Shown here piece by piece: positions 6,838 through 53,520 of a stretch of DNA of 54,094 nt (position 1 is its first letter; every line of letters starts with the position of its first letter). The stretch spans positions 1-54,094 of the forward strand of contig CABMIU010000025.1 of the NCBI GenBank assembly GCA_902386385.1, written 5' to 3'. The stretch is from an uncultured archaeon. Its GTDB lineage: Archaea; Iainarchaeota; Iainarchaeia; Iainarchaeales; Iainarchaeaceae. The notes under the pieces are model-generated. The model was not told where the DNA came from. It saw nothing but the letters and a program-made list of their open reading frames with translations, and searched no databases. A program made the position numbers and the translations under genes.

Positions 6838-6941
6838 AACCTTTTCCTTTCTATTTAGAAGAGAAAGTAAAAGGTCCTTGTCCCTTTAGGGACGAGGTCT
6901 CATGCTCTTTAGGGCACAAGATAATCAAAAGGAAAGAGAAC
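6838..6941 (+). repeat. Structured intergenic element, copy A (pyrimidine tract, purine tract, two hairpins, second purine tract)
   Basis: CCTTTTCCTTTCT (6840-6852) pairs with GAAAGTAAAAGG (to 6874). A hairpin CCTTGTCCC-TTTA-GGGACGAGG spans 6876-6897, and a weaker hairpin with a TTTA loop spans 6898-6921. The element ends in AAAAGGAAAGAGAAC. It is related to 31247-31348. Confidence 0.6.
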
Positions 6942-15059: not shown

Positions 15060-15240
15060 AGCCGGCCTTGAAAGGCCATTATATTTGGAAGGCATGATGG
15101 GCAATCACAACTACACGGGGCCCAATGCTTTACAAAAGCTGCCCGCCAATCAAAATGAACGGGGGCGGGCGGCAAAAAATAAATTTATTTCTCCAGCGAG
15201 CCACGCTTTTATTCTTGGCACAGCTTTTCAGCGAAGCTGA

Positions 15241-15293
15241 CACTTTTCTTTTTGGTAAAGCTTTTTCTTTTCGTGTCAACGAAAAGAAAAAGG
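15241..15293 (-). repeat. 53-nt repeat, copy 1 (3' trailer of tRNA-Pro); contains the hairpin CTTTTTCTTTTCG-tgtcaa-CGAAAAGAAAAAG
   Basis: 47 of 53 positions are identical to 15412-15464, and only the central 6-nt linker differs. The oligo-T runs directly after the tRNA 3' end could also act as the terminator. Confidence 0.8.
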
Positions 15294-15330
15294 TTTGGGG
15301 TCGGGAGGATTTGAACCCCCGCCGCAGCGT

Positions 15331-15468
15331 CATTCGCAGCCTTTTTCTTTTTCTTGATAAGAAAAAGAAAAACGCTGGCGAAAAAGAAAAAGAACAGCCC
15401 ATAGGGCATTACACTTTTCTTTTTCCCCAGGCTTTTTCTTTTCGTGTCAACGAAAAGAAAAAGGCTGA
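15331..15468 (-). other. tRNA-Pro intron (BHB type, 138 nt)
   Basis: The BHB reads CAGCG/CGCTG, then a 4-bp TTCG/CGAA helix flanked by the 3-nt bulges GGT and TGA, then CAGCC/GGCTG. Confidence 0.8.
15412..15464 (-). repeat. 53-nt repeat, copy 2 (5' part of the tRNA-Pro intron)
   Basis: See copy 1 at 15241-15293. Confidence 0.8.
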
Positions 15469-15660
15469 CCCGAACGCTGAATCCTACCAGGCTAGACTAC
15501 GACCCCGAACAACAATATTCAAAATATTTGACTTCTATGCCCGTCATTTTAGGCAGAAACTTTTGCGGTGGGCATGACAAGGAAAATTTTGCATGAAAGG
15601 CTTAAATACCCGAAGGGGCTAATGTTTTAATTTGATTTCAGGGGAGTGGGGGAATAATTT

Positions 15661-31246: not shown

Positions 31247-31348
31247 AAGCTTTTTCCTTTTCCCGGAAAGACCTTGTCCCCTTTGGTACGAGGCCTCGGC
31301 CCTCTAGGGCCGAGGAAAGTAAAAAGCTTGAGCAAAAAGGAAAAGAAC
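31247..31348 (+). repeat. Structured intergenic element, copy B
   Basis: The outer stem is AAGCTTTTTCCTTT (31247-31260) paired with AAAGTAAAAAGCTT (31316-31329). It encloses CCTTGTCCC..ACGAGG and a perfect 9-bp hairpin CCTCGGCCC-TCTA-GGGCCGAGG (31294-31315). The tract AAAAAGGAAAAGAAC follows at 31334-31348. Confidence 0.65.
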
Positions 31349-52790: not shown

Positions 52791-53056
52791 ACGCCAGCCC
52801 CCCCCTCAGCGCCGCTCCAAAAAAAATAAATTGCGTATCCATCGCCTCGCCTATACCGCACGAACCAGCCGGTTAGCCAAACAAAAAACGCCAAATGCCG
52901 AAAAAACAACCCGCACGAAAAAAGTTTTGGAAAATTATTGCACAAAAATATTCCTTCGGGAATTTTTTCCAGAAAACAGAAAAAGATATTTAAAGAGAAG
53001 CAGTGCATATTGCTACTGCGTATTGGGAGTTAAGGGGGTAAGCCATACTGCAAACG

Positions 53057-53131
53057 GTGGGGGAAACATCGGCTCGTTTGCAAAGGCGAGTGAGCAGTTC
53101 CCTGGCTTACCTTCTTTCACTTATTCTAACT
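53057..53131 (+). ncRNA. Candidate structured RNA (nested helices), identity unknown
   Basis: GGTAAGCCA (53057-53065) pairs with TGGCTTACC (53123-53131). This stem encloses TGCAAACG (53069-53076) paired with CGTTTGCA (53095-53102). A TATA-like ATATTTAAAG lies around 53006-53015. Confidence 0.25.
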
Positions 53132-53245
53132 TTAATCCCGCCCCGGACAGCCCCTTTTCGAGGTTCCGACAAGCCTTTTTAACCTTAACACGGGGATTTT
53201 CTATCGGAAAGGAAAAGGCAGCCGGCTATTTTCGCCGAAGGCAGG

Positions 53246-53299
53246 CTCTTTTTCTTTTTGGTTCAGCTTTTTCTTTTTCTCTCCGAGAAAAAGAAAAAG
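53246..53299 (+). repeat. Mirror-repeat pyrimidine tract plus a perfect 15-bp polypyrimidine/polypurine hairpin in the tRNA-Ser 5' leader
   Basis: The sequence reads CTCTTTTTCTTTTT (53246-53259), ggttcag, CTTTTTCTTTTTCTC (53267-53281), tcc, GAGAAAAAGAAAAAG (53285-53299). The element ends 4 nt before tRNA position 1. Confidence 0.85.
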
Positions 53300-53303
53300 G
53301 TGA

Positions 53304-53520
53304 GCGGGGATGGCAGAGCGGTCTAATGCGCACGCCTGGAATAACCCTTTTCTTTCTCTTGCGAGAGAAAGAAAAGCGTTAGCGGAAAAGAAAGAGAAGC
53401 TGGCAAGGCTTTCTTTTCTTTTTTCGCCAACGTTTTTTCTTTTCTTCGCGAAGAAAAGAAAAAAGGTTGCGGCCAGCGTGTTCCTTCACAGGAGCATGGG
53501 TTCGAATCCCATTCCCCGCG
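53304..53520 (+). tRNA. tRNA-Ser (anticodon GGA, class II) with a 133-nt intron at 37/38
   Basis: The 5' exon (53304-53341) is GCGGGGATGGCAGAGCGGTCTAATGCGCACGCCTGGAA. The 3' exon (53475-53520) is AGCGTGTTCCTTCACAGGAGCATGGGTTCGAATCCCATTCCCCGCG. The acceptor stem is GCGGGGA/TCCCCGC, a long variable arm is present, the T-arm is ATGGG-TTCGAAT-CCCAT, and the discriminator is G. Confidence 0.85.
53342..53474 (+). other. tRNA-Ser intron (BHB type, 133 nt)
   Basis: The BHB reads CACGC/GCGTG, then a central CTGG/GCGG helix (3 of 4 positions pair) flanked by the 3-nt bulges AAT and CCA, then AACC/GGTT. Confidence 0.75.

Follow-up and report, generated by a model that had tools for sequence, protein, structure and literature searches.

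The 54,094-nt stretch of archaeal DNA analysed here (contig CABMIU010000025.1 of assembly GCA_902386385.1), referred to as the window, carries polypyrimidine/polypurine hairpins in the introns and outer flanks of two tRNA genes, tRNA-Pro(CGG) and tRNA-Ser(GGA). These hairpins very probably constitute the duplex part of three-armed, A/U-rich fold-back units, which have the class II/IV layout of potential intrastrand triplex (PIT) elements and intrastrand triplex (ITx) motifs. As an overall explanation we favoured, with modest confidence, three-arm self-folding RNA domains that have been inherited and locally duplicated, and that would be removed during tRNA processing.

Third arms beside the hairpins at the two tRNA genes

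An earlier reading by a model that saw only the letters (the sequence-only reading) had described a hairpin module in both introns and both tRNA flanks. The hairpins were found where it had placed them. There were six perfect stems of 12–15 bp, each with an all-pyrimidine (Y) 5' arm and an all-purine (R) 3' arm, two in each intron and one in each outer flank. For tRNA-Pro they span 15261–15292 (3' flank, 3–4 nt from the tRNA end) and 15342–15372 and 15432–15463 (intron). For tRNA-Ser they span 53267–53299 (4–5 nt before the 5' end) and 53347–53376 and 53433–53464 (intron). The claim that the exact module is confined to the two tRNA loci also held, since all six Y/R-type stems of at least 10 bp in the 54 kb were located there. 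The motif AAAAGAAAAAG, with up to one mismatch, occurred 28 times in the window, against 6.3 ± 2.8 times in shuffled sequences; 15 of the 28 occurrences fell in these two loci.

The sequence-only reading had taken the module for a plain hairpin and overlooked a third arm. Every one of the six hairpins was accompanied by a mirror-symmetric third arm 4–9 nt away (15243–15253, 15380–15394, 15414–15428, 53246–53259, 53384–53399 and 53409–53425). In all six, the third arm matched the hairpin better as a mirror repeat than as a direct repeat.

The tRNA-Pro units lie on the minus strand. The 3'-trailer module (15241–15292) reads Y-loop-R-spacer-R'-tail, with a hairpin of 12–13 bp, the loop GUUGACAC and R' at 15243–15253 (mirror match 11, direct match 9). 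The intron 5' module (15413–15464) follows exon 1 directly and reads Y1-loop-R1-spacer-R2 (mirror 12, direct 10). Its arms and loop are identical to those of the trailer module, and its spacer differs at five of seven positions. The intron 3' module (15340–15394) reads Y2-spacer-Y3-loop-R3, with a 14-bp hairpin and its mirror arm at 15380–15394 (mirror 14, direct 12).

The tRNA-Ser units lie on the plus strand. The 5'-leader module (53246–53300) reads Y'-spacer-Y-loop-R, with a Hoogsteen-type arm at 53246–53259 (CTCTTTTTCTTTTT) and a 15-bp hairpin (mirror 14 of 15, direct 12). The intron 5' module (53345–53399) has a 13-bp hairpin and the mirror arm R2 at 53384–53399 (mirror 13 of 13, direct 11). 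In the intron 3' module (53409–53466) the mirror arm Y2 (53409–53425) precedes a hairpin of 14–15 bp (mirror 14 of 14, direct 11). Loops of the tRNA units measure 3–8 nt, as short as those of PIT/ITx motifs, and spacers 7–9 nt.

Each window intron is therefore laid out as [Y1-loop-R1]-spacer-R2 ... Y2-spacer-[Y3-loop-R3]. The sequence-only reading had counted three hairpins per intron. Two perfect hairpins were confirmed in each, while the third consisted of two single third arms, 15380–15394 with 15414–15428 in the Pro intron and 53384–53399 with 53409–53425 in the Ser intron. These arms, R2 and Y2, are complementary over 11–13 bp in the Pro intron, and form a 10-bp Watson-Crick stem in the Ser intron.

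Register of the third arm

Arms of asymmetric sequence distinguish a mirror repeat from a direct one. In the Ser intron, R1 is AGAGAAAGAAAAG and is followed by the mirror arm GAAAAGAAAGAGA, a strongly asymmetric arm sequence. In the same intron Y3, TTTTTTCTTTTCTT, is preceded by its mirror arm, TTCTTTTCTTTTTT. The R arm of the Ser leader, GAGAAAAAGAAAAA, is complementary in parallel orientation to the upstream CTCTTTTTCTTTTT; the match holds at all 14 positions, and so also at the asymmetric CTC/GAG end.

For a wider comparison, one genome of each GTDB species was scanned for the bare hairpin CTTTTTCTTTT-N4-12-AAAAGAAAAAG, with no condition on the flanks. The scan returned at least 125 distinct hairpins, mostly bacterial. 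Among the 125 distinct T5CT4 hairpins listed, a perfect 10-mer within 30 nt was present only as a mirror repeat in 47, only as a direct repeat in 3, and was ambiguous in 19. A metagenome scan was run with the third element left free (any 10 purines), and AAAAAGAAAA appeared in nearly all of its 133 matches.

Hairpins with arms unlike the search pattern gave the same picture. Among 46 distinct perfect A/T-rich hairpins of this kind, there were 16 mirror cases, no direct case and 4 ties. The mirror cases included arms of 13, 14 and 20 nt with quite different spacing of C and G. At the archaeal loci the ratio of mirror to direct was about 19:2. As read from these comparisons, the third arm covaries with the hairpin in the register required of a putative third strand. 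This covariation of the arms showed the predicted three-strand register to be under selection.

Where the loop or the spacer contained a structured insert, the insert was always a self-closed stem (at 6838 and 31247 in the window, in the tRNA-Pro intron of the related locus L241, and in L085; fetched loci are given by L numbers). The start of the third arm thus stays at the foot of the hairpin.

On the sense strand the units run mostly Y-R-R', which makes the third strand a purine one. Two leaders and the intron 3' units run Y'-Y-R. The latter would give U.A-U and C+.G-C triples, like those of known RNA triple helices.

The arms are simple runs of A/G and C/T, and low-complexity sequence arising by chance or an assembly artefact had to be considered. 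The excess over the shuffled sequences, the mirror covariation across samples and the recurrence of the same architecture in independent assemblies of relatives all spoke against it, and left this explanation a negligible likelihood.

The tRNA genes and their introns

The window is archaeal, with a G+C content of 50% and a V-type ATPase operon at about 27–35.6 kb. Its CTP synthase shares 85% identity with proteins from metagenome-assembled genomes labelled 'Candidatus Diapherotrites archaeon', and on this ground the window was placed in the DPANN archaea.

Both tRNA genes were found by ARAGORN with introns allowed. The tRNA-Pro(CGG) gene spans 15296–15506 on the minus strand, with exon 1 at about 15470–15506, an intron of 138 nt at about 15332–15469 (position 37/38) and exon 2 at 15296–15331. 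The tRNA-Ser(GGA) gene spans 53304–53520 on the plus strand. Its anticodon stem, read as CACGC/GCGUG, gives exon 1 at 53304–53341, an intron of 133 nt at 53342–53474 (position 37/38) and exon 2 at 53475–53520. ARAGORN misplaced this intron and gave it 126 nt; it also called the tRNA-Pro gene of the relative L257 a tRNA-Leu gene. Neither window gene was detected by default ARAGORN or by Rfam at the gathering score, because the introns are 133–138 nt long.

Both introns have the archaeal bulge-helix-bulge (BHB) form, with two 3-nt bulges, a 4-bp helix between them and cleavage at 37/38, as judged by reading the sequence and by folding. In the Pro intron the motif is a canonical hBHBh', with the central helix UUCG/CGAA, the bulges GGU and UGA (3 nt) and the h' helix CAGCC/GGCUG. 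The Ser motif is slightly relaxed; its central helix, CUGG/GCGG, has one G.G mismatch, the bulges are AAU and CCA, and the h' helix is AACC/GGUU. No C/D box or other guide-RNA box was seen in the intron centres when these were read by eye.

Between the aminotransferase gene and the Ser leader module lie 455 nt (52791–53245) with no convincing open reading frame and a C/A-rich start. A structured RNA in this stretch, to be sealed by the leader module, was considered and rejected; the folding z was only −1.4, and no homologue was present in any fetched locus.

Descent and gain of units at tRNA-Pro(CGG)

The sequence-only reading had proposed a comparison of orthologous tRNA loci. It was carried out with relatives whose CTP synthase is 78–85% identical to that of the window and whose tRNA-Pro(CGG) gene adjoins pyrG, and it revealed polymorphism in both presence and size. 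L247 has no intron and no module. L245 and L246 have an intron of 31 nt and no module, and L254 and L256 an intron of 52 nt with one degenerate unit. In L242–L244 the intron is 66 nt long with one Y-R-R' unit, and a trailer unit is also present. The intron of L257 (about 78 nt) has one unit of the window's family, and those of L249 and L250 (123 nt) have one unit after two plain hairpins. The window (138 nt) has two intron units and the trailer unit. The longest intron, in L241 (176 nt), has one unit with a structured insert.

The BHB motif is conserved among these orthologues, and the inner h' helix shows compensatory changes (AACC/GGTT, AGCC/GGCT and GACC/GGTC). This suggested that the modules fill the apical part of an older, short intron. 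A Y-R-R' unit is found just after exon 1 in most orthologues, and its arms covary; in the L241 intron, for example, Y is CTTTTTCTTTCTCTTT and R' is GAAAAAGAAAGAGAAA. The shared unit with covarying arms pointed to descent under structural selection. Two of the window's units, the second one in the intron and the trailer copy, are additions. The orthologous Pro trailers of the relatives differ from that of the window or lack the unit, and L241 has a plain T-tract, TTTTTTCTTTTT, at that place.

The tRNA-Pro(CGG) gene is inverted relative to pyrG in L249/L250 and L254/L256 as compared with the window, L241, L242 and L245. The tRNA-Ser(GGA) gene adjoins the aminotransferase gene in no relative examined. 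Both observations mark these tRNA loci as points of rearrangement.

The unit that follows exon 1 of tRNA-Pro equals the unit that follows exon 2, and the unit before exon 2 of tRNA-Ser resembles the one before exon 1. Such symmetry could be a relic, or even a current use, of split tRNA half genes, in which each exon had a leader-type unit (Y'-Y-R) and a trailer-type unit (Y-R-R') of its own. On this view a trailer and a leader would have fused to form the intron, and R2:Y2, complementary over 10–13 bp, would join the halves. Split tRNAs exist in another DPANN archaeon, Nanoarchaeum. On the other hand, no promoter-like box was seen on reading the introns. The relatives that have a 31-nt intron or none at the same site share the h' helix, which indicates that the modules are later additions to an existing intron. 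We therefore found the split-gene explanation hardly credible.

Archaeal tRNAs and bacterial intergenic regions

Among the matches listed in the species-genome scan, the hairpin of all five archaeal loci lay within a tRNA intron, abutted a tRNA end or, in L098, belonged to a block of the same module layout with no called tRNA. These loci are mostly labelled Micrarchaeota or Micrarchaeia. A census was made on 21 archaeal loci of about 250 kb in total. Of 31 archaeal hairpins with stems of at least 10 bp, 20 were inside a tRNA gene called by ARAGORN or within 12 nt of one, a zone that makes up 1.6% of the sequence; many of the loci were chosen for containing the hairpin, not for containing a tRNA, so this enrichment is not a genome-wide figure. 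The gap between the hairpin and the mature tRNA end was always 3–7 nt at the archaeal loci, and the hairpin always faced the exon, with the third arm pointing away.

The trailer unit of the window's tRNA-Pro was found again after tRNA-Val in L176, after tRNA-Ala in L157, and in L219. Within units of this type the arms, the loop GTTGACAC and a TG after the third arm are conserved, and the spacer is variable. The L157 copy (L157:7467–7590) is in an archaeal rRNA operon, where the tRNA-Ala of the 16S-23S spacer is followed, after 3 nt, by the Pro-type trailer module.

Most three-arm matches were bacterial (Bacteroidota, Clostridia, Gastranaerophilales and others) and intergenic. A common neighbouring gene was sought in the bacteria and dismissed, as the flanking genes were unrelated (DnaX, a type II secretion system ATPase, asparaginase, a porin, a histidine kinase and a nuclease). 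Viruses were dismissed as carriers, with 3 matches only in 2.9 million viral contigs. Rfam gave no match to the modules at the gathering score (window and 14 loci) or in E-value scans (window and 13 loci), where only plant microRNA precursors appeared, far below threshold. The tRNA link is absent globally and real in archaea. The non-random tRNA association claimed by the sequence-only reading was thus borne out for the archaea but not for the bacteria.

Larger structures containing the module were seen in several fetched loci. In L162 (2820–3450) there is a tandem array of three to four units of 155–200 nt, each made up of the last ~33 nt of tRNA-Ser(GGA), a Y-R-R' module and G+C-rich hairpins. 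The array resembles the outcome of repeated integration or duplication at a tRNA 3' end. In L098 (3650–4010) an apparent C/D-box small RNA (UGAUGA...CUGA...UGAAGA...CUGA) is followed by a 290-nt block with several triplex-type modules and a conserved hairpin whose last letters are AAACCA. On both sides the block is flanked by a 19-nt sequence from the 3' end of the small RNA, GGGTAGCTGCTGATGGACA, in direct repeat, and a related block is present at L165:1300–1800.

In seven Bacteroidales-like contigs from gut or rumen (L128, L134, L156, L159, L166, L222 and L127) the module is the 5' part of a more extensive, conserved bacterial element. There it is joined by a loop-tail pseudoknot (e.g. GCCTTGA/TCAAGGC) and then by about 60 nt ending in GCAGGAACTCG. 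This element had no Rfam match and no common neighbouring gene.

The placement of the units recalls a bidirectional terminator or insulator, in which the U5CU4 arm would serve as an archaeal oligo-U terminator and the A-rich arms would provide U-tracts for the opposite strand. The Y arm begins 3–7 nt after tRNA 3' ends and 5–6 nt after stop codons, and the Pro trailer has the T-run required of a terminator. Relatives without the unit have a plain T-tract at that place, as in L241. In 24 of 56 bacterial cases the hairpin side follows a stop codon by 2–20 nt, and convergent genes often surround the site. However, exon sequence that has to be transcribed follows the Ser leader unit and all four intron units, five of the eight in the window, and this argues that they are part of precursors and not efficient terminators there. 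A terminator also needs neither Watson-Crick nor mirror register; a direct repeat would do equally well, yet mirror arms prevailed by 16:0 and 47:3. In addition, the PIT elements of Escherichia coli lack terminator activity (PMC4666352). We considered a terminator improbable.

Conservation of the arm and loop sequences beyond pairing, together with the fixed distance to the exon ends, might instead reflect a binding platform for a protein, such as a lineage-specific processing or quality-control factor that recognizes the polypurine/polypyrimidine helix beside tRNA exons. No protein emerged as a candidate. The recurrence of the design in distant bacteria and in contexts other than tRNA speaks against a lineage-specific tRNA factor, and a protein that binds the duplex would leave the mirror arm unexplained. 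This possibility appeared very improbable.

Predicted pairing between loop and tail

The tail of the Pro trailer module, GUGUCA (about 15238–15243), is complementary to the loop sequence UGACAC, which would give a pseudoknot helix of 6 bp. The trailer-type unit of L219 has a compensating pair of loop and tail, UUGCAC/GUGCAA. The match is only 3–4 bp in L176 and in the intron copy. Over all modules, the mean longest complementarity between the loop and the 4–8 nt after the third arm was 2.93, against 2.49 ± 0.06 in permuted pairs. A loop-tail helix of at least 5 bp was possible in about 12% of the modules and in 0% of the permuted ones. In some copies, then, the tail can pair with the hairpin loop, closing a putative H-type pseudoknot.

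Intergenic relatives and the question of mobility

The looser relatives at 6838–6941 and 31247–31348, pointed out by the sequence-only reading, proved to be real and homologous to each other, with 75% identity over 56 nt and a common Y...R...R' layout. The first, on the plus strand, consists of Y1 (6840–6852), R1 (about 6857–6874), two small hairpins and the mirror arm R2 (6927–6940). It begins 5 nt 3' of the stop codon of a cytidylyltransferase-like gene, upstream of an FAD-binding (PF00890) gene taken as nadB. The second, also on the plus strand and between atpC and atpF, consists of Y1 (31250–31264), two hairpins within the Y1-R1 loop, R1 (31314–31327) and the mirror arm R2 (31334–31347). 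Both are about 105 nt long and start 5–6 nt after stop codons, and in both the arms surround one shared pair of small hairpins (ccttgtccc-ttta-gggacgagg).

In L245 the orthologous site has a spacer of 25 nt and lacks the 6838 element. Comparison of the filled and the empty site revealed no target-site duplication at 6838. The 31247 element is likewise absent from its orthologous sites in L248 and L249, where atpC and atpF are 8 nt apart or overlap.

The sequence-only reading had suggested a miniature mobile element. In its fullest form this would be a non-autonomous repeat whose copies enter the introns and flanks of tRNA genes and the 3' ends of further RNA genes, and are tolerated there as RNA processing removes them. 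Near-identical copies are present at the Pro trailer, in the Pro intron and after tRNA-Val and tRNA-Ala, and the Pro trailers of relatives differ or lack the unit. The absence of the 6838 and 31247 elements from orthologous sites points the same way, as do the tRNA-Ser fragments of the L162 array and the repeat around the 290-nt block of L098. Multiple copies and presence/absence polymorphism are the marks of a miniature inverted-repeat transposable element, and triplex motifs have been linked with genome rearrangement (PMC4666352).

On the other hand, terminal inverted repeats were lacking, the window sites showed no target-site duplication, and no transposase or integrase lay close by. The intron unit is common to most orthologues and its arms covary, which indicates largely vertical descent. 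One arm design with unrelated loops, from Bacteroidota to DPANN archaea, is more in keeping with a structural optimum than with one mobile family, and the scarcity of viral matches also speaks against mobility. The copying and the polymorphism were thus upheld and the mobile machinery was not. We regarded a mobile element as unlikely.

A model for the units and its weak points

In this lineage the units are enriched at the boundaries of tRNA exons; besides being inherited, they are duplicated, gained and lost. In the three-arm model, the third arm would lie along the hairpin at one residue per base pair, forming U.A-U and C+.G-C triples or A.A-U and G.G-C triples. The units would be transcribed within the precursor and would fold autonomously into very stable domains, leaving the cloverleaf and the BHB motif free. 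Autonomous folding is expected because A/U-rich arms composed solely of purines or solely of pyrimidines cannot pair with the G+C-rich exons. Removal of the units would then fall to the splicing endonuclease, RNase P and tRNase Z. This passenger-domain mechanism is offered tentatively, with a little less than an even chance of being right.

Under the same model the units would persist by vertical inheritance under structural selection, and would multiply by local duplication or by gene conversion between similar low-complexity arms. Such spread fits the instability reported for the motif class, the tandem array of L162 and the repeat-bracketed block of L098. The units may also benefit the host, for example by sealing the ends of precursors or by-products against exonucleases.

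Several observations weigh against three-stranded, self-folding domains. RNA third strands of the purine motif are generally held to be unfavourable, and most units here are Y-R-R' on the sense strand. Among the few imperfect stems, G.U mismatches, which would mark the strand that acts as RNA, hardly outnumbered C.A mismatches (6 vs 4). The arms are promiscuous, and ordinary secondary structure could suffice in folding models: the minimum free energy fold of pre-tRNA-Pro is one long rod (Y1:R3, R1:Y3 and R2:Y2; z = −7.5), and that of pre-tRNA-Ser is three local hairpins (z = −6.1). The enrichment at tRNAs came from loci picked for the hairpin, as stated above. A passenger that merely folds by itself without touching the exons leaves the fixed distance between hairpin and tRNA end unexplained. 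Triplex formation itself is putative and deduced from sequence. Finally, the PIT elements of E. coli formed no stable triplex in vivo and had no promoter or terminator activity (PMC4666352).

A stronger version of the model was also considered. The units might be true RNA triple-helix end-seals, partly pseudoknotted, in archaea and many bacteria; after RNase P, tRNase Z or the endonuclease had cut 3–7 nt away, the terminus would be locked in a helix of 11–15 triples. We judged this version rather unlikely. If true, it would provide a prokaryotic counterpart of MALAT1 and of the element for nuclear expression (ENE), with stable RNAs derived from introns or flanks, or precursors protected until processing.

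Two practical consequences may be mentioned. The tRNA sets of DPANN genomes are probably under-annotated by default finders, and duplication and mis-assembly are likely to concentrate in the low-complexity arms.

Comparison with known systems

The introns share the 37/38 position and the hBHBh' form with the archaeal BHB introns for which 'transposition' has been discussed, in Thermoproteales and in ARMAN/Micrarchaeota with their broad-specificity endonuclease (PMC3239211). Further likenesses are that intron sequence is related to flank sequence and that related modules occur in different tRNA genes. The introns described here differ in their length of 120–180 nt and in being built of triplex-type mirror modules; such repeats are unmentioned in the ARMAN papers searched.

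The copies with a loop-tail helix resemble the H-type pseudoknots with triple-helical contacts of telomerase RNA and of the SAM-II and preQ1 riboswitches. As in those RNAs, the hairpin loop would pair with a tail further downstream, and the strand between them would run along the stem at one residue per base pair. In the present units, however, the stem is a full helical turn and nearly all A-U, no ligand or enzyme context is evident, and only about 12–20% of the copies have a loop-tail helix of at least 5 bp.

The Ser leader, alone among the units, resembles the ENE and MALAT1 in strand order. It has a Hoogsteen U-rich arm, a Watson-Crick U-rich arm and an A-rich tract, and some 14 U.A-U triples with interspersed C+.G-C would result. 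Its end lies 4 nt before the RNase P site at the tRNA 5' end, and MALAT1 has a tRNA-like neighbour that is processed by RNase P (compare the review PMC13541005). Unlike the ENE, the units have no U-rich internal loop in a longer stem that clamps a 3' A-rich tract, and there was no Rfam ENE match at E-values up to 1. Most copies also have a purine third strand on the sense strand, and the 455 nt upstream of the Ser leader gave no sign of a structured or conserved RNA.

The class to which the units correspond is that of the PIT elements (Hoyne and Maher 2000) and the ITx motifs of the ITxF database (Holder et al., NAR 2015, PMC4666352). Class II consists of a pyrimidine block, a purine block and a reverse-Hoogsteen purine block, and its complementary strand is class IV (Hoogsteen pyrimidine, pyrimidine, purine) (PMC4666352). 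Prokaryotes have such motifs in abundance, most often of class II; no stem longer than 11 arose in scrambled genomes, and the motifs are associated with local genome rearrangement (PMC4666352). The E. coli BoxC/TMECO element, a member of the class, had no promoter or terminator activity (PMC4666352). Each of the eight window units is a succession of three blocks, homopurine or homopyrimidine, on a single strand. Watson-Crick pairing relates blocks 1 and 2 in the 12–15-bp stems, and the third block is in mirror register in all six window hairpins. The likeness extends to the short loops, the intergenic location, the local variability and the predominance of class II.

The differences are equally clear. 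The present units are A/T-rich (T5CT4 type), whereas TMECO is G/C-rich. Their stems are 12–15 long, and 20 in one bacterial copy, as opposed to the typical 8–9 (PMC4666352). Some have a loop-tail pseudoknot or structured inserts, and in the archaea they are placed within BHB introns and 3–7 nt from tRNA ends. Nothing was found in the searchable literature on intrastrand triplex motifs in tRNA introns, at tRNA ends or in DPANN archaea. The general kind is already known as the bacterial intrastrand triplex; what is new is the context, tRNA introns and ends, and the architecture. Prokaryotic intrastrand triplex motifs have been on record for 25 years, yet no function has been assigned to them. 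The tRNA setting gives them defined RNA ends and processing enzymes, so that folding and function become directly testable.

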